Positions 15,268 through 38,542 of a DNA stretch of 64,000 bases are shown here, in pieces (within the stretch, counting starts at the first letter, position 1; every line of letters begins with the position of its first letter). The position numbers and the translations under genes were made by a program. Origin of the DNA: an uncultured Clostridia bacterium (lineage in GTDB: Bacteria; CAYTYR01; UBA6262); assembly GCA_964441745.1 (NCBI GenBank), contig CAYTYR010000003.1:35348-99347 (forward strand). Direction: 5' to 3'. The notes beneath the pieces are model-generated. The model had not been told where the DNA came from. It searched no databases and worked only from the letters and a program-made list of their open reading frames with translations.

Positions 15268-17856
15268 TTATTTTTCACCGGCTCCGGCAAAAAGGACAAC
15301 CTGCTGGGAGACAATGTCAGCCATCAGCCTGGCTTTTAAAGGCTGCATATCTACAATTTTAACTATGTCCCTGTATTTTTTATATTCCGGCGCAAGCTGT
15401 TCCAGCATATTTGGCAGCTTTTTTAATAAGATGCGGTCAAAGATCACGGCCTTCTGCTCGGTATAGATAGCCAGGTAGAATATTCCGGTTTCTACCAGGT
15501 CCTGAAAGAAATGTGATCCAAAAGATATCTCCGGAACTACGTTAGCACTGACAAAAGACAGTTCTCCCAGTACCGTCATATTATTTATCTCTGAGAAAGA
15601 TACTGGTACTCCGAGAGACGGGGTGGTCGTACCCCAACGGCCCGGGCCAAGCAACATGACCGCCATCTTATCCCTATCTTCGATCTGCCGGTTGATCACT
15701 CCGATAAGCCTGGCGATATCGTATTTCTCGGTTTGGGACAGGGCATCGTACTTTTCCGGTTGTACATAGATGATCCGGTGGATATCCTGGGACGTATTGC
15801 CGCCTACAAAAGAACCCTGGACCGCGAGGATAATATTTTCTTTCTTAATATCCTTAGGGATAACAACTTTCCGGCCTATCCCTCTGCTCTGGTGGGGACG
15901 GCATTGCAGTAAATTGATCTGGAATCCGGTTTTATCCTTAAAATTGACGGTAAATTCGATATCTACCGGGTACTGGTACGCTGCTTCCAGGAGTTTCAGG
16001 ATCTGGTGCATCGTATGCACGAACGCTGTATCTTTCAACAGTTCATCAAAGGTGATCAACCAGGCTTGCCGGTCTTCCTGGCCCATTTCCCGCAAGCGGA
16101 GCAGCGCTTCTTCATCTGGTTCAGCGATATGCGCCAGGTTGAGATCCGCGTCTTCGGTCAATACTTCATTGATCGACTTGGTTTGCAGGGTATTTTCCAC
16201 TACATTGATCAGATCGATCTCATGCTGGGAAAAGCGCTGGGCATTCTTCATCCCCTGGTATGGTTTCAATAATGGGGCATCTAAGGCAACGATACGCGGA
16301 TAATCTCCTTCTACCCGGTTCACAGCCCTGGTTCCGAGCCCGAAGACCAGGCGTAACATGCCTGCCTGAGGGTCCATTTCCTTTTTCCAGATATAGGTAT
16401 TATAGGAAATGCCTACTCCGGCTACATCAGGGAAGAAATACTTCTGATGATAGGAGCCGGAAACCCGCTGTACCAGGAGAGCCATCTGCTCATCCTGCTG
16501 GTCCAGTCCCCGTTGCAAACGATAGGTTAAAGCATCCACATTCATGGTACTGGCATATACTTGCTTCACGGTATCCAGGAAATGCTTGTATCGTTCCTCA
16601 GGAGTACCCTGATTAGCGCAAAAAATACTTTCGTATTTACCGGCAAACGCGTTCCCATAGGCATCTTCCAGCAAGCTGCTGGAACGGACAATAAACGGCG
16701 ACTGGCCAAAATATTCGATCATCGAATGGAATTGCTCTTTTATTTCTTCGTTAAAATCACCGGTCAGGAATAATTCCCGTAACTGGGCCGCGGCTGGGAA
16801 ATAACCTTCCTTGGTTTTTTGCTCCATGCGTTTTTTCCACCAGCCGTTTTGGACGATATAGGTGTAAAACACGTCTGAACCGATGTAATAGGAATCATGC
16901 GGTTCCAATTTTTTTTGCCAGGTATGGTCATTATTCGCCAGGACCTTTCTGGCCAACAGCATGCCTACGGCTTTGCCGCCGATGAAACCGGTACCGATCA
17001 ACCGGGACTTGATGCTGACCAGGTCTTCGAGCCGGAAATTCTTTCTAGTTAATTCTAAAATGCGTTCATCCCTGGCCATCATGATCTTCAGCAGGCGGTC
17101 GATCATTTCTGCCTGTTCTTTTTTCCTGGTTTCAGCGCCGATCAATTCCTCAGCCCGTAAAAATAACAGGTCCCAGTAATCCAGGTTCCGCCGGGCGCTT
17201 TTCGCGCCCTGGGTCCCCAGGAAAGAAAATAGTTTAGCCACATCCACGCTGTTGGTTAAGGGCGTGAATTGCTCGCCTTTCTGGACATGCGGCAGGAACA
17301 TGGTCGGGGAATAGCGGTTCCACACCTTGATCGGATGCACAAAATATTTATCCTCGTATTTATAGACATCGATCAACAGCTGGGTGATCTCCCGGATCCT
17401 GGCTACGGTACGGAAAGAATGTTTGTTGCGGATAATGCCGAAATAGGCGATAGTATTTAAAATAAATAAATAGGGGCAGGTGATCTTAAAAAAATTGCCG
17501 ATCATCAGGTCTGTCGCCCAGGCGCTCAGGAGCTCGGAAAGGCAGTCAAAGACATAATAGACCCCTTCTCCCTCTTCCCCGATGATCTTATTAAGTTGTG
17601 TAGAAAAAGATTCAAAACCGCTATAGGCATCCAGTTTATATGTAACTATGTGTTTCCCGGCCGGGAGCAGTGGTTTATGCTTGGCAAAACGGATATAGAC
17701 CACTCTTTTATGGTCTTTGATGGCCTGCTGTACAAAAGGAGTGACAAAATGCTGGTAGTCTTCGATCGTATCTACCTGCCAGACCACATTATCGCCAAGC
17801 TGTAACCCGGTGACCAGCTTATCTAAACCCCGCAATCCAGTCGTTATCCCACTCAT
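15268..17856 (-). CDS. PEP/pyruvate-binding (PPDK_N-like) domain protein with degenerate KaiC/RecA-like N-terminus
   Basis: 862 aa; GGKAVGM and RSSSLLEDAYGNAFAGKYES resemble PEP synthase / pyruvate phosphate dikinase nucleotide-binding domain; sits 28 nt downstream of res. Confidence 0.55.
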   Translation of the reverse strand: MSGITTGLRGLDKLVTGLQLGDNVVWQVDTIEDYQHFVTPFVQQAIKDHKRVVYIRFAKHKPLLPAGKHIVTYKLDAYSGFESFSTQLNKIIGEEGEGVYYVFDCLSELLSAWATDLMIGNFFKITCPYLFILNTIAYFGIIRNKHSFRTVARIREITQLLIDVYKYEDKYFVHPIKVWNRYSPTMFLPHVQKGEQFTPLTNSVDVAKLFSFLGTQGAKSARRNLDYWDLLFLRAEELIGAETRKKEQAEMIDRLLKIMMARDERILELTRKNFRLEDLVSIKSRLIGTGFIGGKAVGMLLARKVLANNDHTWQKKLEPHDSYYIGSDVFYTYIVQNGWWKKRMEQKTKEGYFPAAAQLRELFLTGDFNEEIKEQFHSMIEYFGQSPFIVRSSSLLEDAYGNAFAGKYESIFCANQGTPEERYKHFLDTVKQVYASTMNVDALTYRLQRGLDQQDEQMALLVQRVSGSYHQKYFFPDVAGVGISYNTYIWKKEMDPQAGMLRLVFGLGTRAVNRVEGDYPRIVALDAPLLKPYQGMKNAQRFSQHEIDLINVVENTLQTKSINEVLTEDADLNLAHIAEPDEEALLRLREMGQEDRQAWLITFDELLKDTAFVHTMHQILKLLEAAYQYPVDIEFTVNFKDKTGFQINLLQCRPHQSRGIGRKVVIPKDIKKENIILAVQGSFVGGNTSQDIHRIIYVQPEKYDALSQTEKYDIARLIGVINRQIEDRDKMAVMLLGPGRWGTTTPSLGVPVSFSEINNMTVLGELSFVSANVVPEISFGSHFFQDLVETGIFYLAIYTEQKAVIFDRILLKKLPNMLEQLAPEYKKYRDIVKIVDMQPLKARLMADIVSQQVVLFAGAGEK

Positions 17857-17884
17857 TTTTACTGCTCCAACCTTATAAGTATCT

Positions 17885-20535
17885 CTACAATAAATCTTCC
17901 ACTTTAGTCACCACTTTATACTCAACATCCTTAAATTCCTTAAAATGGGCTTCCCCGCACTTGATCTTCATTCTCTCTTCCGGATATAATTCATTCATTT
18001 CCCGGGTTGATTTCGTCTCCGCCACGAAATACAGCTTCTTCTCCCCTTTAAAGATCAAGGCCCAATCGGGGTTATAACTGCCCAAGGGCGTCTTTATCTT
18101 GAACCAGGCAGGGAGTTTTATGTAGAACTCAACATTATCGTTAGTCTCGCAATCACTGGCGAACCGTTTTTCCGGTTCGCTCATTGAATCTATAGAAATA
18201 TAATTAGCTATAGTTTTATCCTGCTTTGATACTTGATAGAGATTCTTTCTATATGCCTCCACCTCATTGTCTTCGAATAATCTCATCTCATATTCAATAC
18301 CATTGATCTTTTCATATTTTATCCCATCCACAATCATTTCGGCTAAGACATTCTTTATCTCCGCTGTCGCCATATCCATGAACATTTGAGGATTTCTCAA
18401 GATATCAACCAGCCGGCCAGAGCCTTTCAATATCCGCAAGATCGTTGATCGGGTTAATTCGGTTCTCGATTGTATATATCCCAGCACATCCGGGACATCA
18501 AACAAAGGATTTTCAACCTGAGTTATTCCCACACCCTTCTGCACTCCGGTTAATCCTTCTCTGACGACCTGCATTCCCGTTTTAACATACTTAATGATCG
18601 GCTTGCGCACCGCAGGCATATTCTTTATCTCTTTGACCGACGCTTCTATAAGCTTTTCAGTATCGAAATCAATATTATAAGTTGTTTTATGTTTTATTTT
18701 GTCCCATAGCTCCTTAAACTTCTCATCAAACTGGTAATTTTTTCTTAACCGCACTTTCACCCTTTCGTTCTTATTTCTTATCCTCTCCTTGAATTCGACT
18801 CCGCAATCCTCTTCCATTTCTTTCTGTAACTCTGCAGCGAATTCCTCGTAACTTTCATTGGCAATAACCGTCAACCTGTTAGTGTTCTTATCCTGGATCC
18901 TGTCGCCTTGCTGATCCACGCAAAGCCGCAATCCCCTGCCAATTTCCTGCCTCTTTTTCATCTCGGATCTCGTCTCGTTCAGAGTGCATATCTGGAAGAC
19001 ATTGGGGCTATCCCAGCCTTCTCTTAAAGCAGAATGACTGAATATAAATCTTAGAGGATTATTAATATCGAGAAGTCGTTCTTTATCCTTCATTATCAAC
19101 CTGTATGTATCATCATCTGCCAGGGTTTCCCTGGATTCAGAAGAATCTTTAAAGATCCCTTTTTTGTCCTGCGCGAAATAGCCGTTATGAACGACTTCAG
19201 ATTGAAAAGGGATAACTCCCTGATATTCTTTTTTCCCCGCTATTTCCTTGAATATTTCTTCAAACCAGAGGGCAAATTTTCCTTTCGCAGGGTTCCCCGC
19301 CTCATCATAACTGCGGTAGTTGGCTACCCTGTCTATAAAGATAAGCGAAAGGACTTTTATTCCTTTTTCTTTATATTTTTTCTCTTTCTGGAAGTGTTCT
19401 TCCACAGTCTTCCTGATCTGGACCTTCATAACTTCATCCAGCAGGCCGCCCCTCTGCTCTCCAACCGCCAGTATCTCTCCATTGGAGAGCTCAACCTTGC
19501 CTTCCCCCACGTCTATGGCATTAATAATATATCCTTCCCGGTAAAGCTCTCTTTTATTTGATTTTTCATACAAGTCATCTCCAACCTCAACATTCACTGT
19601 TTTCCTGATTATTCCATTCTCGCCAAGGGTATCCAAGCTTATTTTTGCCAGAGTCTTTGTTTTCTTGGCCTTAATATCTTCAACCTTCAGAAAAGCCTGA
19701 TTACTGCTATTCTCGGCAAAAATTGAATCAACTTCTATCTGTTTGACTAATCCCAGATCATAAGCTTTGACAGGATTAAGGCTGTAAACAAGGTTATACA
19801 GATTTGCGTGAGTAGCAGAATAGCGGAGAGTGCAGGCAGGATTCAGATTATCTATGGCCTTTTTCCTTATTTCCGTTTCCATGTTCTGAGGTTCATCAAC
19901 AATGACTATGGGATTCGTCGCCTGTATGAATTCTATCGGTTTCTTCCCGGTTAGTTTATCATTAAACTTATTAATAACATTCACGTCCTTGGCAAATGAA
20001 TCAATATTGATGACCAATATCTGAATGTTATTGTTTAGAGCGAAATTCCTTAAAAGGGATATTTTCCCCGGATCATACACGTTGAATGTCGCCGGTTGTT
20101 TCTCATACAAAGACTGGAAATGGTCATGGGTTATCTCAAGGTTCTTAATAACTCCTTCTCTTATGGCGATGCTGGGGACTACGATTATAAACTTTTTGAA
20201 TCCATAGCGTTTATTAAGCTCATATATGGTCCGCAAATATACATAAGTCTTTCCTGTACCTGTCTCCATTTCCACTGAGAAATTAAGACCTTGCAGGTAT
20301 TCCGCTTCTTTGAGCCCATTTTTCCGCTGAATTGCCTGAAGATTTGCTAATATTTGCGCTTCTTCCAAAACTATCCCATTTCCAACACCGTTTTCAGACA
20401 GCATATAGCCGCTATTGGGAGACAAAGAAAATTCATAATCGCTCTTATTTAAAGGCTGCCCCTCGAACAGGTCAACTATGGAGTTAATAGCGTCTATCTG
20501 ATACTGCTGGTTTGGATCAAAATGGAGTTTCATTA
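17885..20535 (-). CDS. res: Type III restriction enzyme, Res subunit (helicase-nuclease)
   Basis: Walker A METGTGKTYVY, motif II VIVDEPQNM, C-terminal nuclease region; real start is ATG at 20533-20535 (MKLHFDPNQQYQ) with AAGGA SD, not the upstream in-frame start at 20668. Confidence 0.9.
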
Positions 20536-20543
20536 TTATCCTT

Positions 20544-21275
20544 CTATTTAAACATCCGCAGATAATCTTTCTGTGTTTCCCTGACCATACGGGCAATAAG
20601 ATCAACAAAATCCCGATCGTTTCCGTCTCGCGCTGTTTCCAAAGAAGCGATATATTCCTGCCTGACAATGGGCGGGATTATGGTTATAACATAACCTTCC
20701 TGCATTAAAATAGTGTTCATCAGCAGCCGCGCCACTCTGCCGTTACCATCCAGGAAAGGATGAATAAAAACAAATTCTTTATGAGCCAATGCCGCGAACT
20801 CCACCGGGTGTTTTTGCCGGCGCAGTCTGCCTAATTTTGGCGGCAATCGTTTCATCAACACTGGTAATTCCGCCGGTAAGGGCAAGGGATACTTGGAACC
20901 TGTAATAATAGCTCTTACCTTCCGATACTCACCGGCATTTTCCCGATCTATTCGATAATAGAAAAGCCGGTGCAAATCTTTTATCCCGCGTTCGGTTACG
21001 GTTTTTTTCCTGGCCAGTTCATACATAAAGTCATAGGCTTCGCTATGCCCGGCTGCTTCGTAATGATCTCTTAATGGTTTACCGCCAATGGTAATACCGT
21101 CTTCAATAACCACCTTAGTCTCAGATTCTGTTAAGGAATTACCTTCAAGAGCGTTACTGGCATAGGTTAACCCTATGCGGAAATATTCTTTTGTTTGCTC
21201 TAACAAATGCTTATCCAAAGGCCGGCGCTTGTTTATCTCTGCCTGTAATTTATCTATTTCCTGATAAATAGTCAT
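20544..21275 (-). CDS. fic: Fic family protein
   Basis: 243 aa; canonical Fic motif HPFLDGNGRVARLL; AAGGAG SD 7 nt upstream; stop is 9 nt before the res ATG. Confidence 0.85.
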   Translation of the reverse strand: MTIYQEIDKLQAEINKRRPLDKHLLEQTKEYFRIGLTYASNALEGNSLTESETKVVIEDGITIGGKPLRDHYEAAGHSEAYDFMYELARKKTVTERGIKDLHRLFYYRIDRENAGEYRKVRAIITGSKYPLPLPAELPVLMKRLPPKLGRLRRQKHPVEFAALAHKEFVFIHPFLDGNGRVARLLMNTILMQEGYVITIIPPIVRQEYIASLETARDGNDRDFVDLIARMVRETQKDYLRMFK

Positions 21276-21288
21276 TACTTAGCTCCTT

Positions 21289-21336
21289 TCAAAGCTCTAT
21301 CTGATACTGCTGGTTTGGGTCAAAATGGAGTTTCAT
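21289..21336 (-). repeat. R2: duplicated copy of res 5' end forming a 15-codon mini-ORF (MKLHFDPNQQYQIEL)
   Basis: ATGAAACTCCATTTTGACCCAAACCAGCAGTATCAGATAG matches the real res start (20497-20535) with one mismatch by eye, then diverges into the Fic RBS. Confidence 0.7.
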
Positions 21337-21369
21337 TATTTATTTCTCCAACTATTTCCAATATTCTTA

Positions 21370-21398
21370 TTGACATCATGGCGCCAATGCTGTAATAT
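21370..21398 (+). promoter_or_regulatory. consensus-like sigma70 promoter (TTGACA-17 bp-TAATAT)
   Basis: TTGACA at 21370-21375, 17-bp spacer, TAATAT at 21393-21398, in a 400-bp noncoding gap and pointing antisense to the RM operon. Confidence 0.5.
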
Positions 21399-21404
21399 TA
21401 TATT

Positions 21405-21550
21405 AGGCAATAATGCTAATAATTTTGGATCGGGGTGTCCCCGGTCGGTATTAATGAGCGGTAAGTCCGTTGTGAATTGTTCCAAGTGTTCCCTTCCATA
21501 GGTTGGCTATAGCTTGGACGCAACAAGTTCACAGGGCGCGCTCATTTTTT
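21405..21550 (+). ncRNA. candidate structured small RNA of about 145 nt, antisense to the Type III RM operon
   Basis: downstream of the promoter; local hairpin GATCGGGG-TGT-CCCCGGTC (21427-21446); long-range pairing AATGAGCG (21452-21459) with CGCTCATT (21538-21545) followed by T-run 21545-21550; only coding potential is a 15-aa ORF without SD. Confidence 0.35.
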
Positions 21551-21672
21551 ATTTTATGGCAATTTTGCCTTCATTACCCTTCCCATCACATGACCATCAC
21601 ATAAGATTTGCTTTATTTATCAACACATTTTGCCATTTAACAAATTCACACAAACTTACAATCACATAAACC

Positions 21673-23130
21673 TTAAGACCATATTGGTATATACTTAGCA
21701 TACTTTCTCGATTTATTCTCTGGATCAAAATCTTTAATTAATCTTGCTTTGATGGTATCAGCTATTATTCTTGAAACTATTGAGTAATTCTTTTCATCTA
21801 TTTTAAATCTTTCTCTTAGAGACTGATTGGTCATGTTACTATTTGAGACATATTTTAAGCAACAATGTTGATAACATGCTCTTATTTTATCATCTTTATC
21901 CATCTGCTTTAGAGTTTTATAAGAATACATAATAACCTTCAGAAAATTATCTCCCTCAATGAATTTCGGCGCAGGTAATTGATACTCCTCTACTTTATCA
22001 ATAACTTTATCAATACCGCTCCCTCTTTCTTCACAAATACCTGCCCTCCGCATAAAAGAAGCAACTTTCTCATTTCTTGACTGAGGATGATGGTCAATAA
22101 ACCTTAAAGTGCTAATTAACGGCTTTCCCGGATTAGTAATTTCAATTCTATCGTTAAATATTTCAATCATAGGCCCAGTGCCAATTTCATTAAAATCCTG
22201 ATGGATTAATGCATTGGCTACTAATTCTCTTATTGCTATTTCAGGATACATTTTTACTTCTTTTCTAAATGCTCTTCCTATTTCTTCATTTGCTTGCAAG
22301 TTATCATTAATATAATCAATTAATCCCTCAAATCCATTGGCATATCCTTTAGCCCCAATTTGTTCTTTTTTTGTATGTAATCTGTCATTACCCTTATATA
22401 TAATAACCCTGATTGCCTTCCTATTTAATCTTTCAAAATACGAAAGATTATTGGCTATCAAAATAGTGCCCAAATTAGTAATACTATGGCTATTTATTTC
22501 TTTAAGAATAAATCTTTCTCCTTCTAAATGTTTTAAAATAGCACTTTTATCAGCGGGTAAATTCGACTTCAATATCCTAAAATAACCTGGATAATCTAAT
22601 AATTCAAGTATTTTATCTTCATCCAATTCTTTCGCGGCTATGTCTTTTTCAAAACTATACGCTAGTGTTTTATTCCATATTTTTCTCGCTTTTTCTGGCA
22701 AGTCCTTTAATTTCTTTTTATAACTGCCAACTCTAATATACTCTGCCCCTTTAAAACCTACTGGCGTATTATGAGTAGCATTGATTTCAAACATTACAAC
22801 AGGAACCCCTTCATACTCAAATTCATTAATTCTGAAATCAATTCTCGGACTTAGCAATCTAATTAACCAATTTTCTAATTCCTCATTACCGTTTTTTGTT
22901 TGGCTAGGCTTAAAATCTGTACCAACTACTTTATGGGTCTGATCTTCAATGCCAAAAACAAAATATCCATAGCTTCTATTATGTAAGCAAGCTGAATTAG
23001 ATAAAGCAGATATATACTCCCCAATTTCATCAAGTGAGCAACTTAAATTTTGCTTGAATTCCACCCACTCTGTTTCCTTTGGCAGCATTATAAGTTCTTT
23101 TAATTTATTCTTAAGATCATCTGTGTTCAT
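21673..23130 (-). CDS. AlbA_2 (Schlafen-like) plus HATPase_c_4 domain protein, putative nucleic-acid-binding ATPase/regulator
   Basis: 485 aa; N-terminal ETEWVEFKQ...FVFGIEDQTHKVVG resembles AlbA_2; C-terminal ALIHQDF...IEIFNDRIEITNPG resembles HATPase_c_4; start overlaps R1 mini-ORF stop (ATGA). Confidence 0.65.
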   Translation of the reverse strand: MNTDDLKNKLKELIMLPKETEWVEFKQNLSCSLDEIGEYISALSNSACLHNRSYGYFVFGIEDQTHKVVGTDFKPSQTKNGNEELENWLIRLLSPRIDFRINEFEYEGVPVVMFEINATHNTPVGFKGAEYIRVGSYKKKLKDLPEKARKIWNKTLAYSFEKDIAAKELDEDKILELLDYPGYFRILKSNLPADKSAILKHLEGERFILKEINSHSITNLGTILIANNLSYFERLNRKAIRVIIYKGNDRLHTKKEQIGAKGYANGFEGLIDYINDNLQANEEIGRAFRKEVKMYPEIAIRELVANALIHQDFNEIGTGPMIEIFNDRIEITNPGKPLISTLRFIDHHPQSRNEKVASFMRRAGICEERGSGIDKVIDKVEEYQLPAPKFIEGDNFLKVIMYSYKTLKQMDKDDKIRACYQHCCLKYVSNSNMTNQSLRERFKIDEKNYSIVSRIIADTIKARLIKDFDPENKSRKYAKYIPIWS

Positions 23131-23180
23131 TTTATTTCCTTTGATAGATATCGCTGGTTCGGATCAAAATGGAGCTTCAT
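23127..23180 (-). repeat. R1: diverged copy of res 5' end forming a 17-codon mini-ORF (MKLHFDPNQRYLSKEIK)
   Basis: ATGAAGCTCCATTTTGATCCGAACCAGCGATATCTATC resembles res start; its TGA overlaps the ATG of the 485-aa ORF. Confidence 0.65.
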
Positions 23181-23200
23181 GAAGCAGCCATATATTTTCC

Positions 23201-25084
23201 TTATATGGTTCTGAATTCTATTCCTGCGTCTTTCATTTGCAGGACGGTATTTGTTTTAAGCTTGTCATTGCCGGCAAATAAGGAATCCAGGCACAGGCAT
23301 TTGGCAGGCTTTTGTTTGACTATTTCCTTGATCAGCTTGCTGTTTACCTCAGATAGAATAACAACCATTTCGCCGTTATTTACCGTATAAATCGGCGCAC
23401 CGTCTATTTTTTCTTCTTTCGCGACCGTATTCAGGCCGTAACCGGTTTTCAGAAGTATTTCCCATAGCATATTGGTTTGTTTTGCCTTAGGTTTAACCGG
23501 ATACTCAAAAGCATCCATCTGCTTCTTAAGTTCAGCTTCCTCTGTTATGACATCATTTCGCCAAATCTTAAAATTGGATAGCTTCAGCTTATATACTTTG
23601 AATCCCAGGTCTATTTCTTTAGGCCGCTCTTCCTTGCCTATCTGTTTAATTGCTCTGCGAATTCTTTCTTTGGCGATATCTGCTATGGTTTTATACCCGG
23701 CCTTATAAGCTTCTGTTTCTGCTTCAGTTTTTTCCGGAAGCTGGACGCAGATAAACTTTCTATTCCCCCCATCTTCCTTGTTTAAATCTAAAACAGCATG
23801 AGCAATAGTTCCGGACCCAGCAAAAAAATCAAGAATAATATCATCAGATTCAATACCGGTTATTAATTCTATTAGTTTTTTCATTAATCTTACAGGTTTA
23901 GGTGTATCAAAATACGATTCACCATTAAAAATTTCTTTAATCTCTCGTTTTGACTCCTGATTATCTCCAACTATATCTCTTGTCCATAGAGTTATGGGAG
24001 TAACTGAAGTTTTTACCTCTGATAAAAATCTTTTTTGTCTCGGAATATTGTCTCCATACTCTCCAAACCATATACGATTATCTTTTAGAAGCTCACTAAA
24101 TTTTCTCTCACTAACAACCCAACATCTTCCTTTTGTCGGAAAAACTTTCCTTCCGCTTGGTAAAATTATGGGATATAGTTTTTCCTTGATTTCTGGCCCC
24201 ACCGTTAAATCACCTGATGACCAAGGGCCTCTTAAATCATTATCAGGATTATGATATCTTGAATTAGTTTCTTCTGTTCTTTTTAACCCCAGCACACCTA
24301 GTTTTTCTACATTTTTTGCATAAACTAAAATATAATCATGACTCGTTGAAAATGTGGTTTTTAAATTAATGGGCGAAAATGCTTTCTCCCAAATTATACT
24401 TGCCACAAAATTCTCTTCTCCGAATATCTCATTCATTAACAGCCTGAGATTATGGACTTCATTGTCATCTATGGAAACAAAAATAACTCCGTCTTCACAG
24501 AGCAGATTTCTGGCGAGGAACAGTCTTGGATACATCATGGAAAGCCAATTGGAATGGAAATGGCCATTTTCTTTGTTATTTTTTCTAAATAGCCCTTCCT
24601 TCAACAGATAGCCTTCTTCGTCCTTTTCCCCTATTCTTTTCAGATAGTCTTCTTTGGACTCGGAAAACCGGTCAGGATAGATAAAATTGTCATTGCCGGT
24701 ATTGTAGGGCGGATCGATATAGATCATCTTGATCTTGCCATAGTAGGCTTTCTGCAGGACTTTCAAGACTTCGAGGTTTTCCCCTTCAATGAATACATTG
24801 CCTGTTTTATCAAAATTGACGGATTCTTCAGGGCAAGGAGCCAATGTAGCAGTTGTAGGAGTTTGCAGGACCTTAAAAGCTTCGGACTTACCGGCCCAAT
24901 TAAGGACATATCGCTCATTCTCCAGGGATAGCTCTTCACCTAAAGTAAGCTTGAGCTTCTCCTGATCTATTTTCCCTTCGCTGAATACCTCTGGAAAAAG
25001 TTCTTTTAGTTTCTTTACTTTATCCTTTTTCACATCTACCGATTTTCCATCCATTCCTGTCTCCTCTATTACAAACTTATTCAA
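23201..25084 (-). CDS. mod: Type III R-M Mod subunit, N6-adenine DNA methyltransferase
   Basis: 627 aa; DPPY motif in MIYIDPPYNTG; AdoMet-binding DFFAGSGT; overlaps upstream Fic gene by 8 nt. Confidence 0.9.
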   Translation of the reverse strand: MNKFVIEETGMDGKSVDVKKDKVKKLKELFPEVFSEGKIDQEKLKLTLGEELSLENERYVLNWAGKSEAFKVLQTPTTATLAPCPEESVNFDKTGNVFIEGENLEVLKVLQKAYYGKIKMIYIDPPYNTGNDNFIYPDRFSESKEDYLKRIGEKDEEGYLLKEGLFRKNNKENGHFHSNWLSMMYPRLFLARNLLCEDGVIFVSIDDNEVHNLRLLMNEIFGEENFVASIIWEKAFSPINLKTTFSTSHDYILVYAKNVEKLGVLGLKRTEETNSRYHNPDNDLRGPWSSGDLTVGPEIKEKLYPIILPSGRKVFPTKGRCWVVSERKFSELLKDNRIWFGEYGDNIPRQKRFLSEVKTSVTPITLWTRDIVGDNQESKREIKEIFNGESYFDTPKPVRLMKKLIELITGIESDDIILDFFAGSGTIAHAVLDLNKEDGGNRKFICVQLPEKTEAETEAYKAGYKTIADIAKERIRRAIKQIGKEERPKEIDLGFKVYKLKLSNFKIWRNDVITEEAELKKQMDAFEYPVKPKAKQTNMLWEILLKTGYGLNTVAKEEKIDGAPIYTVNNGEMVVILSEVNSKLIKEIVKQKPAKCLCLDSLFAGNDKLKTNTVLQMKDAGIEFRTI

Positions 25085-26198
25085 AAAGTTTCACATAACC
25101 TTGATAAGCATATACTCGGTTTCTCCTTTGCCCCGTTAATTCTTTTAAAATATCTAATTTAAGCAGTTTTTTAGTCAAGACAATAGCATTGGGATTGGCT
25201 AATCCTGTTATTTGTTCAATATCTTTTATTCTTACCAAGGGCTTTTTATATAATGCGTTAAGCAAAACCATAGCTTTTTCTGAGCGGCCCATGCTTACCA
25301 CTTTCTCTATATCCCTCTGCCTCAGCTTATGGATTTTTCTGGCAGTTTCTACCGCTCTCTCGGCAGTGTCGATTACTCCTGATAGGAAAAATATAAGCCA
25401 TCCTTCAAGATCATCTTTCTCCCGAGCGGTATCAAGCTTATCATAGTAATCTTGCCTGAAACGCTTAAAAAACTCTGATATACACAAAAGTGGTTTATGG
25501 AGAATCTTCTGCTGGCATAAATAAAAAGTAATGAGCAATCTCCCAATTCTGCCGTTTCCATCCAGAAAAGGATGTATCGTTTCAAACTGGTAATGTATTA
25601 ATCCAATTTTAATAAGTACTGGCAAAGGCGCCACATCATGTATAAAACTCTCTAAATTTCCCATTAAGGCTAATACTTCATGCGCTGGGGGTGGAACAAA
25701 AGAGGCGTTTTGCAAAGTCACTCCCCCTATCCAATTCTGGGAGGTTCGAAATTCACCCGGATATTTTCCTTCTCCTCTGACTCCTTTTAGGAGAATGGCA
25801 TGTATTTCTTTAATGAGCCGCAAGGAAAGAGGAAGTGTTTCAAGGCGTTCCAGCCCGTAATCCATAGCTTTTATATAATTCAATATTTCTTCAACATCTT
25901 TATGTATTTCAAAATCTTCCAATTTTGCTTCTGCTTTGAGAACATCAGAAAAAGTAGCTTTGGTGCCTTCTATTTGACTGGAAAGAGCCGCCTCCTTCTT
26001 TATATACATAAAAATAAAGAAATTAACATCTGGCAATACATCAGCAATCCCATCCAATCGACCTAAAGCCAGATCCGCTTTCGAAAGAAGATCCTGCAAT
26101 AAATAATCTTGCTTAATATTAAAAGGCAAGCGGTTAGGTATAAAAGCCTTATATTGCAAATCTCCTTTTAACTGATTAACATAATTCCCTGTTCTCAT
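25077..26198 (-). CDS. fic: Fic family protein with C-terminal winged-helix-like domain
   Basis: 373 aa; Fic motif HPFLDGNGRIGRLL; first gene of the RM operon. Confidence 0.85.
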   Translation of the reverse strand: MRTGNYVNQLKGDLQYKAFIPNRLPFNIKQDYLLQDLLSKADLALGRLDGIADVLPDVNFFIFMYIKKEAALSSQIEGTKATFSDVLKAEAKLEDFEIHKDVEEILNYIKAMDYGLERLETLPLSLRLIKEIHAILLKGVRGEGKYPGEFRTSQNWIGGVTLQNASFVPPPAHEVLALMGNLESFIHDVAPLPVLIKIGLIHYQFETIHPFLDGNGRIGRLLITFYLCQQKILHKPLLCISEFFKRFRQDYYDKLDTAREKDDLEGWLIFFLSGVIDTAERAVETARKIHKLRQRDIEKVVSMGRSEKAMVLLNALYKKPLVRIKDIEQITGLANPNAIVLTKKLLKLDILKELTGQRRNRVYAYQGYVKLFE

Positions 26199-26204
26199 AA
26201 CACC

Positions 26205-26335
26205 TCAACCGTAGATAAGATTTTTAATAACTACGATATCATTATAATTCGTAGATAGTAATTTGTCAAGTTTTTTTAATCGTAGATTAGACTAAAATTA
26301 TCTATGATAATTATTAATATCATAGATTATAGCTA
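26205..26335 (-). promoter_or_regulatory. promoter/operator region of the Fic-mod operon with iterated YRTAGATW repeats
   Basis: at least six copies in both orientations (CGTAGATAAG, CTACGATATC, CGTAGATAGT, CGTAGATTAG, TATCTATGATA, CATAGATTAT) within about 130 bp. Confidence 0.45.
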
Positions 26336-26388
26336 AGTATTATCATATATTGGCATGTAAGTTAGTAGGTAGTGAAGCAAGGGGAAAA

Positions 26389-27066
26389 TTACTTGTTTTT
26401 GCCTTTACAGGCTTTTACGCAGATACCGCAGATGGCTTGTGATACATACTTTTGTTTTTGGAATTCTTTTAAAGCCGCGCAGCAGGCCTGATGGTCGAAA
26501 TCCTGCGATTTTTCCCTGATCGCTTTGGCGGGACACACCGCGATACAGGCGCGGCAGTCAGCGCAATCAGCAGCCAATGCTTTGTCCACAGCTAACGGCA
26601 TATCGGTTAAGATAGTCACCAGCCTTAACTGGGCGCCATAAGATAATGTGACCAGCAGATTATTGCGGCCGATCCAGCCTAATCCTCCCGCCACCGCAAT
26701 TTTTTTATGAGACAAGTGCCCTTTCTGATTTTGCCAGTCGATTACTTGCGAAGCCGGTATAGGCATGGCTTTGTATCCCTGCTCCTGGATCAAAGCCGCC
26801 AGTTTCAGCGCTGATTGGTCCAGGAAATTATTGACCTGCCGGTAATGGTTAAAATAAAGCGGGGTGGGACGGTCACTGATCTCTGCCAAAACCTGGCTCT
26901 GCAAGGGGAAGCCCAGGGTAATGCCATAATTTAAGTCTTTAATCACTTCCGGCGGAAAAAGAAACTCTGCCTTCAGGGTACCAATATCAGCTACGCCGAA
27001 GAGACGAAAACCAAGGCCCAGGGCCTGGTCTTTGAGCTGGTCATATTGTTCTTTTGGCTGCCCCAT
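26389..27066 (-). CDS. 4Fe-4S protein, epoxyqueuosine reductase (QueG)-like, short form
   Basis: 225 aa; GGLGWIGRNNLL and CADCRACIAVCP motifs recall QueG; shorter than canonical QueG. Confidence 0.5.
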   Translation of the reverse strand: MGQPKEQYDQLKDQALGLGFRLFGVADIGTLKAEFLFPPEVIKDLNYGITLGFPLQSQVLAEISDRPTPLYFNHYRQVNNFLDQSALKLAALIQEQGYKAMPIPASQVIDWQNQKGHLSHKKIAVAGGLGWIGRNNLLVTLSYGAQLRLVTILTDMPLAVDKALAADCADCRACIAVCPAKAIREKSQDFDHQACCAALKEFQKQKYVSQAICGICVKACKGKNK

Positions 27067-27529
27067 GATTCAACTCCGTTTCAAAATATTTTTTTAAAGC
27101 CGCCAGTAATCGTAGTTCCTTTTCTTTCTTTATTTTTTCCCAGGAACTCTGCGGCGCTATTTCCTTACCGTTATTATTATAGAAACTGCCTTCGATCACT
27201 ACTTTTGTGCCTTTTTCCAGGCCCATGAAAATCAGGGTATAATGTAACCCGTAAACATTATATCCAGAAGCATCATTATCACCACCGGAAATTTCCATAA
27301 TACCTTTATCACTATCCAGATTGATCAGGCGGTAATCATATTTATTAGTGAATCGCATCACTGCCCGCCAGCTCTCTTCTACGGACAAGCTGGTAATGTA
27401 CTCAACAGCCTCTTGATCCTGAAAAACGGCTGGTACCTTTCCCGTAGCGCAGCCCGCGGCCAGGACCAGCATGAGAATAATAAAATGGAGAGTTACCAGT
27501 TTCAAGTTACGAGTTTTATGATTTGGCAT
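27041..27529 (-). CDS. hypothetical lipoprotein
   Basis: 162 aa; signal peptide with lipobox LAAGC. Confidence 0.5.
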
Positions 27530-29381
27530 TTTTATTCCGGTGTAAGTATATCATCAAGATCGAAATGGCGGCTGGAGTGATACCCGATATGCGCGCGGCC
27601 TGACCGACCGAAGCCGGCCGGAAAGAACTCAACTTTTCCCGTACTTCCCGGGATAAAGCTAAAATGGCCTGGTAGTTAAAATCTGCCGGGATCTTCAGCC
27701 TTTCGACTTTCTTGAATTTTTCTATTTCCCGGGCTTGCCGTTCCATGAATCCGGCATACTTGATCTCTATTTCGATTTCCTGGATCTCCGCCTCGCTTAA
27801 AGCCTGTCCAGAGGGAGACAATTCAGCTATCTGTTTATATGATAGTTCATTTCGTTTTAGCAATAAAGATAATTTAGCCGGATTTTTTATCGCCGGGCTG
27901 TGCCAGAGCGCCAAGCTGTGGTTAGCTTTAGCCGGGGCGATCCTGGTTTTATTCAGCCGTTGTAATTCTGCCGTAATATGCTCTTTCTTGATTAAAAAAA
28001 GCTGGTGTTCTTTCTCACCCACTAATCCCAGCTGGTGGCCAAACTCCCGTAAACGCAGGTCCACATTGTCTTCGCGCAGGACCAACCGGTATTCGGCGCG
28101 GGAGGTGAACATCCGATACGGTTCCGCAGTCCCCTTGGTCACCAGGTCATCAATCAGCACACCGATATAGGCCTGGCTGCGGTCCAGGATAAACGGCGGC
28201 CGGCCTTGCACTTTTAAAGCGGCATTGATACCAGCCATCAAACCCTGCGCGGCGGCTTCTTCATAACCAGTAGTGGCATTGATCTGGCCGGCCAAATACA
28301 GGCCAGGCACTTTTTTCGTTTCCAGGGTTAGCTGTAATTCGGTCGGGTCCACATAATCATATTCTATGCCATATCCCGGATGCAGGATCTTTACTTCCTC
28401 TAATCCAGGGATCGTATGCAAAAATTTTTCCTGCACATCCACCGGCAAACTGGTAGAAACGCCATTGGGATAATATTCATCCGTATCCAGCCCTTCAGGT
28501 TCCAGAAAAATCTGGTGTCTTTCTTTATCCGGAAAACGCTTCAGCTTATCTTCTATAGACGGGCAGTAACGGACTCCGGTTCCCTTGATCACACCGGTAT
28601 AGAGTGGAGACCGGTCAAGATTAGCCAGGATTATTTTGTGGGTTTCCTCATTAGTGTAGGTTAAATAGCACGGGACTTGTGGCAAGAGCGGTTTTTTGGT
28701 AGACAGGGAAAACGGTCGTGGCGGGTCATCGCCAGGCTGTATTTTAGTCTTGGAAAAATCTATGGTTTTTTTATCCAGCCGCGCGCAGGTACCGGTTTTC
28801 AAGCGGCCGGTCTGCAAACCCAGCTGGCGTAAAGATTCAGTCAAGCCAAGGGCTGGCTGTTCATTGATCCTGCCGCCAGGAAAATGTTCCAAACCTATAT
28901 GGATAAGTCCGTTTAAGAAAGTGCCCGGGGTCAGGATCACTGTTTTACTGGTGATAGTTTCTCCCTGGCCAGTCTTGAGGCCGCTGACCTGGCCATTTTC
29001 AGTCAATACTTCCGCTGCTGCCCCCGGCTTGACTTCCAGGTTCGCCTGCCGCTGTACAGCTTCTTTCATATATGTATTATAGCGGTATTTGTCAACCTGG
29101 GCTCGCGTCGACCATACGGCCGGGCCTTTAGAACGGTTCAACACCCGGAACTGGATCCCGCAGGCATCAGTGGCTTTGCCCATTTCGCCGCCAAGAGCAT
29201 CCACTTCTTTGACCAGCTGTCCCTTAGCCAGGCCGCCAACCGCCGGATTACAGCTCATGACTCCTATTTTTTCTGTGTCCATAGTGAGCAAAAGCGTCCG
29301 GCAGCCCATCCGGCTGGCTGCCAGCGCTGCCTCGATCCCGGCATGCCCGGCACCAACTACTATTACATCATAATTTTTCAT
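27516..29381 (-). CDS. mnmG: tRNA uridine 5-carboxymethylaminomethyl modification enzyme MnmG (GidA)
   Basis: 621 aa; FAD-binding [16 protein letters not shown] and conserved MnmG segments throughout. Confidence 0.9.
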
Positions 29382-29436
29382 AAAAAGCTTAACTCCTGAG
29401 TTAAAAGAAAAAATGCACTTTCAAAACGCAAAATAT

Positions 29437-29757
29437 TTATTTAAATCGCTTTAATTTCTCTAAAATGCCAGGGCTAATTTCAGCCTTTGAAATAAGGCCA
29501 TCGGCGATGGCCGGCGCGACAATCATATCAGTATACCCGTTTGTATAGAAACTCCATAAATCGCGTGCGATCCCGTTATGAAATTTATGAATAAAATCAC
29601 TAAGCTCAAACGCGGTTATCTTGTTTTCCTTCCATTGCTTAAATTTATCTTCAAGCGATTTCAAGGCCTTGGACAGATCGCGCTCATAAGCTAATCCGGC
29701 AAGTCTGCGCAATTCTTTTCTTTCAGATTTTGTGAAGCAGTCTTTATTCACAGTCAT
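29437..29757 (-). CDS. hypothetical protein, last gene of the SNF2-SWIM operon
   Basis: 106-aa ORF co-directional and closely spaced with SWIM gene; no family recognised. Confidence 0.4.
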   Translation of the reverse strand: MTVNKDCFTKSERKELRRLAGLAYERDLSKALKSLEDKFKQWKENKITAFELSDFIHKFHNGIARDLWSFYTNGYTDMIVAPAIADGLISKAEISPGILEKLKRFK

Positions 29758-29852
29758 TTCGCCGCCTCGCTCTATAACCTTACCATCCCGCTTTCAAGCT
29801 TTCCAACGCTATTTTTTTATCAGTAATTAATTTTAAAATAAAAATACTCTTT

Positions 29853-30641
29853 TTATTTTTTCTTTTTTCTTTTCATTAACCGAGGGGTCCTGCCTGAACC
29901 GGCTTTTTCATCAAGCTCGATACCGAACATTTCGACTGCGTCCAAATCAGCAATCACCCGCCCGGTCTTTTTATCCGCTTTCTTCAGCATCTTCTTTGAT
30001 TTATCCCGCAAAGCTTCCGTAATCAGATCATCCATTTCGGTTTTACGCAGTAAGAAAAATAGCTTGGGATCATCATCCAATTTTACTCCCACCCCATAAA
30101 GCGTGGCCGCTACATGCTTGCACATACTTGCCCAGTCCGGGCAACTGCAGCTAAACTTAATCTCTTTAGGCGCCGGAAACAACCCCTTCCCTTTGGCGGT
30201 AAACAATTCCATAAGATCCTGGGGAAACCGGCCTTCAATAAGCTCTTGTAAAGATTCGATTTTCCCGGCGCATTTTTTCTTAATATCGTGCCAGGCTTCT
30301 TTGTTCAACGGATTTATTTTTACCGCTACTTTATAAGGATGCGGGCTGGTACCCTGCACCACTGCCGTTACTTCGCCCGGGTTTATTTTAAAATCCAAAA
30401 CAAAACCGTTTCTAACGTAACTGCGGCCCCGGCCGATCCGGTTTGAATAATCCGCATACTTTTCCAGGTTTGCATTCCAGGCTTTGCCCCACCAGGTATG
30501 GGCCAGTTTGTTCCCCTTTAAAATCAAAGGGTTGATCTGAGGATTTTTCTTCTTTAGCTGCGCTAATTTCCGCTGCGCCTTCGCGCATTTTTCTCCAACC
30601 GAAACATACCGGGGAAATCCTGAATAACCATAGTATCCCAT
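29853..30641 (-). CDS. SWIM zinc-finger protein
   Basis: 262 aa; CxC...CxH signature CSCPDWASMCKHV; 23 nt downstream of SNF2 helicase. Confidence 0.8.
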   Translation of the reverse strand: MGYYGYSGFPRYVSVGEKCAKAQRKLAQLKKKNPQINPLILKGNKLAHTWWGKAWNANLEKYADYSNRIGRGRSYVRNGFVLDFKINPGEVTAVVQGTSPHPYKVAVKINPLNKEAWHDIKKKCAGKIESLQELIEGRFPQDLMELFTAKGKGLFPAPKEIKFSCSCPDWASMCKHVAATLYGVGVKLDDDPKLFFLLRKTEMDDLITEALRDKSKKMLKKADKKTGRVIADLDAVEMFGIELDEKAGSGRTPRLMKRKKKK

Positions 30642-30664
30642 AAGCTTATCCTCCTGAAATTATT

Positions 30665-33340: not shown

Positions 33341-33456
33341 ATTTGATCTGTTCCATGTTGTTTATTCATATCCGGACACCAGCGTGGACCCAGCATGACC
33401 TATATATCCACATATTCTCAACCGATTCTCAACCGCGTAGGTTGAGGATTGGTTAT

Positions 33457-34602
33457 TCAAACTTCACCTGCATTGCTTACTATCTTGAAATCAACCCCCA
33501 GTTCTTCAAAATGTTTTTTCCCGCAGTGAACTTTATCCGCTTCGTCCGGGCGCAATTTGGCAAGGTCGGCAAATGCCTTTGTTTCCCTTACCAAATACAA
33601 CGTTTGATCACCCTGCTTAACGATTGCCCAATCCGGATTATATGTCCCCAGCGGCGTGGTTACCTTAAACCAGTCCGGCAGCTTAACAAATAATTTAATA
33701 TCCTCACGGCTATCTAAGGCCTGCGCAAAGCGGCGCTCAACGTCAGAATCAAACTCAACCGCATCATAGACCGATTTACCAACGTCCACCTAGAACAGAA
33801 GCCACCTCGATACATTTGACCAACCGCATATCGTATGCTTTGACCGGATCCAACTTATATAGAAGGTTATACGGATTCACATGCGTAGCGGAATAACGAA
33901 GCGTACATAAAGGATTTAATGTTTCGATCGCTTCCTTGGCTTTGTCGGTGTTGTCAACGCTCTGCGGCTCATCGATAATCACAATCGGATGCGTCGCTTG
34001 AATAAACTCGATCGGCTTACGCCCGGAAAAACGATCGTTTTCCCTATGGATAACATTACTCTTCTTCTCATCATCCTTGTCCTCAAGCGTCTTGATTACT
34101 CGTAGCAAACTGCCGTACCTGACTGACCTTCTTGGAATCATACACAAAATAATCGAACGCCACGTTATTGTATAAATGTAAAAAGTGGTCGCGCGTAATA
34201 TCAATGTTTTTGAGAACACCCTCCCGGATAGCAACACTGGGAACAACGATAACAAATTTCTTAAAGCCGTATTTCTTGTTCAGCTCGAAAATAGATCGCA
34301 AATAAACATACGTCTTGCCGGTGCCGGTTTCCATTTCCACAGAAAAATGCCTCCCCTGCAAGACGCCAACCTTCTCAATCTCGTCTTTCTCCTGAATCTT
34401 CCAAACGTTATCCAGAAGCTTCTCATTATCCAGCACAAGGCTATTTCCAACGCCCAACTCTCGAAGCTCAAGAAGCCCGTAAGCTGTAGTAAAACTAACC
34501 TCAAAGTCCGCTCCCGGTCAAAGGCTGGCCGTCAAATACGCTGACCACAGCATTAACGGCATTAAGTTGATATTGTTGATTGGGGTCAAATTTTAATTTC
34601 AT
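33457..34602 (-). pseudogene. res: decayed Type III res gene (frameshifts plus large internal deletion)
   Basis: three ORF fragments in different frames match res 17885-20535: N-terminus MKLKFDPNQQYQL then stop after 33 codons, Walker A METGTGKTYVY fragment, DEPQ fragment, C-terminal nuclease fragment; about 1.1 kb versus 2.65 kb for the intact gene. Confidence 0.8.
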
Positions 34603-35591
34603 TTCTTCTTTCTTCCATTCCCAATCTGTTTAACAATTTTGTCAAAATCACTAATATAATCCTTACCTCTCTCTTTTCTGTAAATTTCGAATTCTTCTCC
34701 GGCCTTTTGAGCGGCTTGTTCGGCGCTTATGCTTCCGGCGTCAGCAAGAAGTTTCCGCTCGCTTAATTTCAAAAATTGATCCAGTTTTTCCACCCAATCC
34801 GCCATCTTCATCAGCCTGCCATTGGTTGCCTGCAATTCCGCAAAATCAAGATACATTGATACAATCAGATTAAGCTGGTTTAGCTCTTTTTCAGAAAGAT
34901 AGTTTTTCGCGATTTTAACATCTTGCGAAGTAATATAATTACCTTTAAAACTGGTAAGCCCCATTAATGGTTTTTGACTATCCGCGCGTTTTACTACAAT
35001 TTCCGCCGCGGTATGGCCGTGAACCGCGTAATGCATTTTATTCTGCACAGTAGCGAAAAACTCTTTAGTAAGATTATCGTCTTTGCGGTAATCAACGCTG
35101 GTAGCGTAAATATCGGTAACTTTCTGGTAAAAATTGCGCTCACTGCTTCGAATATCGCGAATACGCTGCAATAGTTCCTGAAAATACCGCGCTTTCTGCC
35201 CGCCCTGTTTTAATCGCTCATCGTCCAATGTAAACCCCTTGACGATATACTCTTTCAGGCGCTGAGTCGCCCAAATTCTAAATTGCGTTCCGCGAACCGA
35301 CTTGACCCTATACCCAACCGAAATAATGACATCTAAATTATAGCAATTTGTCGGTTTGGTAGAAAATTCGGAATTCCCGAATTTTCTCATCGTCTCCCCC
35401 TTCATAAGCTCTTTTTCTTCATAAATATTTTTTATGTGTTCATTGATTGTGGATTTTGATTTTTCAAACAACTCGGACATCTGATCCTGCGTAAGCCAAA
35501 CGGTTTCATCTTCTATCTTTACCTGAAGCCTTGCCTGCCCGTCTTCAGTTTCGTAAATGGTTATTTTTGCATCCTCAACAGGTTTTTTCAT
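34599..35591 (-). CDS. rhuM: RhuM-family protein inserted between mod and res of the decayed RM locus
   Basis: 330 aa; IYETEDGQARLQVKIEDETVWLTQDQMSELF and SVGYRVKSVRGTQFRIWATQRLKEYIVKGF are characteristic RhuM blocks; stop overlaps res2 ATG (ATGA). Confidence 0.75.
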   Translation of the reverse strand: MKKPVEDAKITIYETEDGQARLQVKIEDETVWLTQDQMSELFEKSKSTINEHIKNIYEEKELMKGETMRKFGNSEFSTKPTNCYNLDVIISVGYRVKSVRGTQFRIWATQRLKEYIVKGFTLDDERLKQGGQKARYFQELLQRIRDIRSSERNFYQKVTDIYATSVDYRKDDNLTKEFFATVQNKMHYAVHGHTAAEIVVKRADSQKPLMGLTSFKGNYITSQDVKIAKNYLSEKELNQLNLIVSMYLDFAELQATNGRLMKMADWVEKLDQFLKLSERKLLADAGSISAEQAAQKAGEEFEIYRKERGKDYISDFDKIVKQIGNGRKKK

Positions 35592-35641
35592 TAATAATCC
35601 CCTCTTTCTCTAACCCAACAGCTAAAGAATTACCGGCATTT

Positions 35642-38323: not shown

Positions 38324-38482
38324 TTATTCTTCCTGGAGGCTATAATACCCTTTTAATGTCGCCGCCTGATTACAAGCGCAACCCCTCCTTCCAATCGCGC
38401 GTATCCCTTACGGAACAGGCCGAATTTCAGCAAAATCTTGAGGGCAAGGTCAATTGCGCTGGCAGGACATTCTCTCCTTGAC

Positions 38483-38516: not shown

Positions 38517-38542
38517 AGATCAAGGAGATATTCTGCATAATG

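Follow-up and report, generated by a model that had tools for sequence, protein, structure and literature searches.

An atypical, solo DUF3800-V RNA gene antisense within a type III restriction-modification/Fic island of an uncultured Clostridia bacterium

Introduction

What is a small RNA (sRNA) gene with its own promoter doing on the strand opposite to a restriction-modification (RM) operon, and to which system did it belong? The question is raised by a stretch of 64,000 nucleotides from an uncultured Clostridia bacterium (GenBank assembly GCA_964441745.1, contig CAYTYR010000003.1, positions 35,348 to 99,347), hereafter called the window, to which all positions given without a locus name refer. 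A gap in its operon (21276-21672) is flanked by a Fic gene (20544-21275, minus strand) and an AlbA_2/HATPase_c_4 gene (21673-23130, minus strand), and an earlier note, made from the letters alone, had proposed an antisense sRNA in this gap. Our analysis indicates that 21451-21548 on the plus strand is almost certainly an intact gene for the DUF3800-V RNA (Rfam RF02964), an RNA that elsewhere forms a two-gene cassette with a convergent DUF3800 gene and that has very probably been orphaned within the island described here. It is an atypical instance of a known RNA family, being solo, 5'-extended and embedded in an RM locus, and not a new kind of RNA.

Eleven RNA motifs with differing structures, all located near DUF3800 genes and several of them ending in terminators, were described by Weinberg et al. 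in 2017 (PMC5737381). The adjacency to DUF3800 (PF12686) stands behind the name of RF02964 and is not demanded by the Rfam model.

Identity and features of the RNA gene

A scan with Rfam 15 revealed a full-length match to RF02964 (positions 1-96 of 96) at 21451-21548 (+), scoring 71.5 bits against a gathering score of 37.4. The E-value is 7e-16 for the 1.4 kb searched and 3e-14 for the whole window, in which this is the sole Rfam match. The score is mid-range among relatives: the 15 relatives tested all matched RF02964 at 52-78 bits, and three extra solo copies did so at 40-53 bits. With a model built only from metagenomic RNAs, the window being left out (R2), the window RNA scored 106.4 bits, the top value of 34 RNA-selected loci (range 70.7-106.4). 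Out of 28 consensus pairs 26 form in the window RNA; the other two are U-U oppositions in helix P4, at positions that are unpaired in 32/33 and in 12/33 of the aligned sequences. All differences in P2 and P3 between the window and its nearest relatives (L050 and L069) keep pairing. The features of the RNA gene are as follows.

21370-21375, plus strand: -35 hexamer TTGACA (promoter scan), with the same or a near match at the corresponding position in nearly every related locus
21393-21398, plus strand: -10 hexamer TAATAT (promoter scan) after a 17-nt spacer, the whole promoter having 10/12 consensus matches
21405-21450, plus strand: predicted 5' leader of about 46 nt, specific to the window, outside the Rfam model and absent from the other loci examined
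21451-21548, plus strand: DUF3800-V RNA core (RF02964 positions 1-96) with four stacked helices, P1-P4
21539-21555, plus strand: 3' arm of P1 (21539-21546, pairing with the 5' arm at 21453-21460) and T-run, a predicted intrinsic terminator

From the promoter, transcription is predicted to start near 21405. The leader contains a small hairpin (21406-21417) and a GGGG/CCCC hairpin (21428-21446, GGAUCGGGG-UGU-CCCCGGUC); it folds at -16.6 kcal/mol (z -2.6), and its hairpin leaves the core fold undisturbed. As a repeat, the hairpin sequence proved unique within the window and had no match in the fetched loci. The core is marked by the invariant internal loops GGUAAG.CC, GUGUUCCC, GGC.A.AGC and GGC.CGCU, and P1 runs into a T-run of the form T6-A-T4 (21545-21550 and 21552-21555). 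For 21405-21552 the folding energy is -51.5 kcal/mol (z = -4.2), a value that none of 200 shuffles reaches. Tandem repeats were sought at 21200-21750 and none was found. Judged by these elements the RNA gene appears as a self-contained transcription unit, with its own predicted sigma-70 promoter and with the closing stem and U-run as putative terminator.

The promoter, GGGG/CCCC hairpin, closing stem, T-run and 15-codon open reading frame (ORF) from which the earlier note had argued are all present where it had placed them, and its proposal of an independently transcribed, structured sRNA gene opposite to the operon, with a sigma-70 promoter and an intrinsic terminator, is supported from sequence by the Rfam match, covariation and fold. 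The Rfam search and folding that it had suggested gave the 71.5 bits and the z-score of -4.2 reported above. It had also set conservation of the promoter hexamers in related loci as the point on which the proposal should stand or fall, and a near-fixed TTGACA-type promoter was found there. The hexamers by themselves are another matter: 4 promoter-like sites occur in 2 kb, compared to 8.2 expected in shuffles, so the promoter match alone is not above chance. The 15-codon ORF (ATG 21454 to TAG 21501) lies within the RNA, and its start codon is not kept in other loci, which have GTG, TCG, AAG or CAG instead; the ORF thus does not represent a coding gene.

A perfect TATAAT on the minus strand (21397-21402) overlaps the -10 box of the RNA and has no recognisable -35; it could be a weak Fic-res promoter or an AT-rich chance match. 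The same sequence was also found on two Logan contigs, SRR13007705 and SRR13007709, one of them 100% identical across the gap and the other with an RNA of the same R2 score. Carrying the same sequence, these contigs are uninformative on divergence.

The RNA family and its cassette

For a wider collection we used a pattern of invariant bases, GTGTTCCC..GGCNNNAGC..GCNCGCT, which matched one viral contig and 119 stretches in species-representative genomes. About 33 of these matches are true RNAs, told by the 5' AGCGGTAAG, and the remainder are chance matches in high-GC genomes. Most true RNAs come from metagenome-assembled genomes named Omnitrophota; others belong to Aminicenantes, Planctomycetes, Elusimicrobia, Smithella, Firestonebacteria and Goldiibacteriota. 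An alignment of 33 sequences, window included, supports the four helices, with 89.6% of cells paired and changes on both sides in 15/28 pairs. The covariation score of 0.415 compares to 0.20 in shuffles (0/500 reach 0.415) and to at most 0.13 with slid partners. U-G pairs, including an invariant one at columns 39-66, fix the strand. Of the 33 aligned sequences nearly all have a T-run after P1, and the RNA is a single-copy unit in the aligned loci, with no variable single-stranded extension among the 33 members.

The relatives have a promoter of the form TTGACA, about 17 nt, TATAcT before the RNA. Its -10 ends 7-8 nt before AGCGG in 30/43 unique loci and 10-13 nt before it in a further 8/43, and from this position the transcript of the relatives would start at the base of P1. 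In most RNA-selected loci a convergent ORF of about 215 amino acids stops 5-19 nt past the RNA. Its C-terminus reads ...KYEK.D.EW..VFK.KV.YD.VYLP*, and these partner ORFs are Pfam DUF3800 proteins (E down to 1.6e-13) with invariant D7, E8, D134, H167, Q177 and D180. The invariant residues match the DE and QxxD motifs known for the RNase H-like DUF3800 domain (PMC7736814, PMC10910872).

The association was found from both directions. Among the RNA-selected relatives, 24 of 30 evaluable loci have the DUF3800 gene beside the RNA. For the converse set 80 metagenome loci were picked by the protein alone (58-90% identity), of which two end at contig edges; in all 78 evaluable loci the RNA is present, convergent and directly after the stop codon. 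The neighbours of the cassette vary and include HsdM/N6_Mtase (4 loci), ResIII (4), HTH_3 (4), IS200 transposase (3), SWI2/SNF2, YgjP, Peptidase_M78 and phage terminase, all among the top 25 of 125 families. RM genes of types I and III and a pair of HTH and M78 genes belong to these settings. Varied neighbourhoods together with a strict anatomy identify the unit as a small portable RNA + DUF3800 cassette. As the DUF3800 stop lies only 5-19 nt from the RNA 3' end and leaves no room for a separate terminator, the DUF3800 mRNA must enter the RNA gene in antisense.

Two other readings of the cassette were rejected. A conserved ATGGCA after the terminator resembles the start of a plus-strand gene; read on the other strand, it is the ...YLP-stop end of the convergent DUF3800 gene. 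A three-gene module, with the neighbours of about 500 amino acids as AlbA_2 homologues, was discarded since the window neighbours have no homologue in any other locus.

Searches of cultured plasmids and phages for the RNA gave no match, and a protein-pattern scan of viral contigs detected no close relative. The sole viral contig with a cassette is L001 (IMG/VR UViG_3300024054_000540), where it lies at 4187-4937, right after a phage terminase large subunit containing a Hint (intein) domain, and where the DUF3800 protein is only 44% identical to others. In another locus (L124), whose cassette is the nearest to the L019 query protein (90% identity), a tRNA gene at 696-782 lies about 300 nt upstream of DUF3800, which might indicate an integration hotspot.

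Loss of the partner gene

The DUF3800 gene was searched for in the window by several means. No DUF3800 domain was detected by Pfam among the ORFs at 6.8-39.8 kb, and neither tblastn with 19 family proteins, nor a family hidden Markov model run on six-frame open frames, nor the DE motif revealed one in the 64 kb. Nucleotide homology to the relatives (BLAST) starts at 21443-21449 and ends at 21562, or at 21574 with L125. What appears to be left of the partner is the following.

21554-21574, minus strand: probable DUF3800 3'-end remnant, TTG CCA TAA (Leu-Pro-stop), sitting where relatives end in ...YLP*

The remnant bases are shared with the terminator tail. Aligned locally to eight relatives, 21556-21672 revealed no further DUF3800 remnant, the alignments being no better than shuffles. 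The about 98 nt from the remnant to the AlbA_2 stop (21575-21672) showed no similarity to any fetched locus, nor did any Rfam family exceed its gathering score there. Deletion thus seems to have removed the DUF3800 gene nearly up to its stop codon, with the short remnant as modest evidence.

The 5' side is altered as well. The -10 box of the window ends 58 nt before AGCGG, the largest distance among the loci compared, and about 50 extra nt, hairpin included, separate promoter and RNA; this displaced promoter accounts for the predicted leader of about 46 nt. We considered relatives of the AlbA_2 or Fic genes as a source of an intact island cassette, and R2 found no RNA at those loci.

The window does not stand alone. 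Out of 31 evaluable RNA-selected loci, the window counted, seven have an intact RNA and promoter together with a defective or missing DUF3800 gene.

L038: frameshift in DUF3800
L042: nonsense codon at about codon 23 of DUF3800
L071: nonsense codon at the catalytic Gln of DUF3800
L057: 5' truncation, first 68 codons of DUF3800 missing
L075: last 21 DUF3800 codons only, fused to another ORF
L091: DUF3800 gone; island with HsdS-, AAA-ATPase-, HNH- and HTH/ImmA-like genes, predicted by reading the sequences, not by Pfam
Window: DUF3800 apparently gone

The R2 scores of these widowed RNAs (80-106 bits) are in the normal range. The opposite case, an intact protein without RNA, was found in 0/78 loci (Fisher p = 9e-5 versus 7/31). 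In L075 (1793-2077, RNA-oriented) the 21 DUF3800 codons continue the frame of 70 unrelated N-terminal residues and form a 94-amino-acid ORF beside the intact RNA, a deletion outcome much like that in the window.

Second RNA copies without a DUF3800 gene of their own were also observed beside intact cassettes, those of the first three entries at a distance of 0.3-2 kb.

L193, 1759-1857 and 3666-3764: RNA copies, the extra one with 73 bits being as good as the cognate
L130/L131, 4025-4126: extra copy, 55 bits, looks partly decayed
L178/L191, 4677-4778: extra copy, 46 bits, looks partly decayed
L195: extra copy, 21 bits, looks partly decayed

Genomic setting of the window RNA

The RNA gene lies within an inserted island, of which the following features are relevant here.

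17847-26401: inserted island of 8.55 kb with SoFic, type III mod, AlbA_2/HATPase_c_4, the RNA (antisense), Fic and type III res (Pfam, PADLOC)
20544-21275, minus strand: Fic-domain protein of 243 amino acids (Pfam; PADLOC PDC-S04 / SoFic-like)
21673-23130, minus strand: AlbA_2 + HATPase_c_4 protein of 485 amino acids (Pfam), its gene ending 124 nt from the RNA 3' end
26241-26269, minus strand: perfect TTGACA-17-TATAAT promoter upstream of the first gene of the island, SoFic

The island is located between Fer4_16-like and PPDK_N genes, which are adjacent to each other in two relatives, L210 (GCA_028712895.1) and L208. MnmG (27516-29381) is 87-89% identical among relatives and 89% identical in the two island-free genomes. 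The nearest homologue of the AlbA_2/HATPase_c_4 protein is 69% identical and is found in a different island, and Fic homologues of 78-82% identity are encoded by stand-alone genes in unrelated contexts. The type III RM/Fic island is horizontally acquired.

Operon transcripts running antisense through the RNA gene would probably come from the promoter at 26269-26241. A scan of the gap 21276-21672 revealed no minus-strand promoter or terminator, and together with the operon promoter this suggests that the RNA gene probably faces operon transcription head-on.

Around the SoFic promoter (26207-26351), three CGTAGAT(A/T) repeats (starting at 26210, 26250 and 26281) and a 13-nt palindrome (26297-26330) form an operator-like arrangement. 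In the mechanical ORF list the res ORF (TTG 20668) overlaps Fic by 125 nt (20533-20668). Gene calling on the identical Logan contig places the start of res 11 nt past the Fic stop and gives a protein of 882 amino acids, and the overlap is probably an artefact of ORF listing. At 29382-38544 lies another insertion, of about 9.2 kb, as judged against these two relatives. It encodes a SWIM protein, an SNF2+DUF3670 helicase, a lone RE_endonuc fragment of 110 amino acids (33457-33789), RhuM (34599-35591), an N6_N4 methylase (36142-37563) and two short SNF2/ResIII N-terminal fragments (37678-38323), and looks like a broken second type III-like RM system.

Possible functions of the RNA

In type III toxin-antitoxin (TA) systems such as ToxI/ToxN, CptIN and TenpIN, a structured and abundant RNA neutralises the nuclease encoded beside it, and these small mobile modules occur in defence islands and phages. 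Related type III toxins are likewise accompanied by different antitoxin RNAs. With modest confidence in the explanation as a whole, we favour that the window RNA is the orphaned partner RNA of a two-gene DUF3800 cassette. In the cassette, an abundant, constitutively transcribed structured RNA would bind the DUF3800 nuclease and hold it in check in a type III-like manner, and antisense pairing may add control, given that the RNA gene lies in the path of the DUF3800 mRNA. The window copy would then be what remains after deletion of the toxin-like DUF3800 gene, an orphan antitoxin-like RNA that might be either a recent relic or kept to neutralise DUF3800 proteins from elsewhere in the genome or on mobile elements.

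The antitoxin-like mechanism itself is plausible, and we propose it tentatively. It is suggested by the near-consensus promoter, the obligate linkage to DUF3800, the portability of the cassette in defence, RM and phage contexts, and a decay that affects the protein gene and spares the RNA. It is further suggested by the roles of DUF3800 elsewhere, type VII retrons having it as their effector and Cas12a2/a3 and Cas13 loci as an accessory (PMC7736814, PMC10910872, PMC13594972, bioRxiv 10.64898/2026.08.25.746378), and by the many unrelated RNA structures that accompany this one protein family (PMC5737381). The earlier note had named a type I or III antitoxin-like RNA as one possibility; type III-like is the part that comes closest to the family context, while the features that define either class were not found. 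Another of its suggestions, the promoter of a lost gene, does not hold as worded since the promoter would drive the RNA itself, but a gene does appear to have been lost, namely the DUF3800 partner.

Several points speak against an orphaned antitoxin-like RNA. The RNA unit (about 100-130 nt) is a target 5-6x smaller than the 645-nt gene, and from size alone P(0 of 78) would be 0.03-0.06. The RNA-selected set was found by exact conserved bases, which favours intact RNAs. The absence of DUF3800 covers 64 kb of a contig of 121,858 bp, and a copy could be present elsewhere on the contig or in the genome. The deletion could be recent, and the displaced promoter alters the 5' end of the RNA. The DUF3800 protein has no counterpart in PADLOC or NCBIfam; solved structures likewise gave nothing. 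Finally, Weinberg et al. called the DUF3800-associated motifs 'curious' and gave no functional hypothesis (PMC5737381), and our literature search found no function assigned to any DUF3800 RNA since 2017.

A rather unlikely alternative is that an active DUF3800 ribonucleoprotein requires the RNA, be it as subunit, guide, scaffold or substrate, with the window copy as a functionless relic. HEARO and IS605-orfB-I, motifs of Weinberg and co-workers located beside nuclease genes, turned out to be guide RNAs, and such a cofactor would fit the strict co-occurrence (78/78) as well as the invariant internal loops, which resemble protein-contact sites. Both precedents are listed in PMC11701678. Target size alone could account for the decay asymmetry, and some of the extra solo copies near intact cassettes are decaying (20-55 bits with model R1, 40-41 bits in Rfam). 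However, a variable guide-like segment is lacking, since the RNA spans P1 to terminator and its variation is confined to covarying stems. Unlike omega-RNAs it lies on the opposite strand with its own strong promoter, the DUF3800 protein has only about 215 amino acids, and the RNA in the window is undegraded, with the top R2 score.

A more far-reaching version of the antitoxin-like reading seems distinctly unlikely to us. Here DUF3800-V RNA and DUF3800 would form an unrecognised class of RNA antitoxin and nuclease toxin (abortive-infection-like), in which the RNA is single-copy, rod-shaped and convergent and has a consensus promoter of its own. The undegraded solo RNA in the window would be kept by selection, either as an orphan antitoxin against DUF3800 nucleases brought in by mobile elements or as a co-opted roadblock or antisense element delaying res relative to mod.

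That the RNA acts as a type I-like antisense element, by base pairing or transcriptional collision with a convergent transcript, is in our view improbable. In the cassettes its target would be the 3' end of the DUF3800 mRNA, which runs antisense into the RNA gene given the spacing described above; in the window it would be the AlbA_2-Fic spacer of a read-through mod-AlbA_2-Fic-res transcript, where the RNA could lower Fic and res relative to mod. Convergent, 3'-overlapping antitoxin sRNAs do exist, e.g. RatA/txpA and SR4/bsrG, and the consensus operon promoter, the gap free of detected minus-strand promoters or terminators and the stable fold of the opposite strand (z -3.6) are in line with such a role. 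Yet perfect cis pairing needs neither covarying stems nor invariant loops. Trans pairing with the DUF3800 start region was rejected, as duplexes of cognate RNA and start region (-32.0 kcal/mol) are no better than non-cognate ones (-31.7 kcal/mol). The earlier note had suggested regulation of res or Fic, for which we detected nothing specific: the window RNA overlaps no coding sequence, homologues of its neighbour genes were found beside the RNA in none of 32 other loci, and the partner elsewhere is DUF3800. With neighbours unrelated to those at every other locus, the RNA would influence res or Fic, if at all, only incidentally.

A chance resemblance or a small protein-coding gene retains practically no probability. 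Promoter-like hexamers alone are indeed no commoner here than in shuffles, but chance is ruled out by the Rfam E-value, covariation, the R2 score and the conserved promoter and terminator, and the ATG of the short ORF is not conserved.

Significance

DUF3800 proteins keep appearing in retrons and CRISPR accessory loci. The window, L091 and L075 represent natural partial knock-outs, in which promoter, RNA and terminator are intact and the protein gene is removed. Such an RNA-only allele, together with the anatomy of the cassette, makes the function of DUF3800 RNAs experimentally approachable. There is also a lesson for annotation, as a strong convergent sRNA gene can sit inside an RM operon, where it could affect how the restriction subunit is expressed.

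Comparison with known systems

The window RNA is a member of RF02964, with which it shares the four-helix rod, the invariant loops and the 3' intrinsic terminator. It departs from the family pattern in having no DUF3800 gene nearby, in its 5' leader of about 46 nt with a hairpin and in its antisense place within a type III RM/Fic operon.

The omega-RNAs of IscB and TnpB (HEARO, IS605-orfB-I) offer a precedent in which a Weinberg motif beside the gene of an RNase H-fold nuclease is the RNA partner of that nuclease. Omega-RNAs, however, share the strand of the nuclease gene, reach into its 3' end and have a guide segment that varies, whereas the DUF3800-V RNA is convergent and has no guide-like segment. 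Type VII retrons, which combine a reverse transcriptase, a non-coding RNA and DUF3800 (Mestre et al. 2020, PMC7736814), are alike in pairing DUF3800 with a dedicated structured RNA in a defence-type module. The DUF3800-V RNA differs from the retron RNA by its terminator and by the lack of an msr/msd layout. No reverse transcriptase was found in the window ORFs scanned at 6.8-39.8 kb, and RVT was not among the top 25 of 125 families neighbouring the cassette.

To type I TA systems (RatA/txpA, SR4/bsrG) the likeness lies in the convergence, the strong sRNA promoter and the 3' ends, which are bound to overlap in the canonical cassette. This overlap with the 3' untranslated region of DUF3800 is inferred from spacing, and the window RNA, if operon transcripts read through the gap, would overlap them in their spacer only; no coding sequence of the window is overlapped. 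The DUF3800-V partner is an enzyme-like protein of 215 amino acids rather than a small hydrophobic peptide, the architecture of the RNA is covarying, and the window has no partner gene.

The DUF3800-V RNA is not a member of the type III TA systems either. It has no tandem repeats, is single-copy and lies convergent with its own promoter instead of upstream on the same strand, and the partner of the family is the RNase H-like DUF3800 and not a protein of the ToxN/AbiQ type. The window neighbours, on the opposite strand, are Fic and AlbA_2/HATPase_c_4. Nevertheless, the proposed logic is alike, and in both cases related proteins are accompanied by different RNAs.

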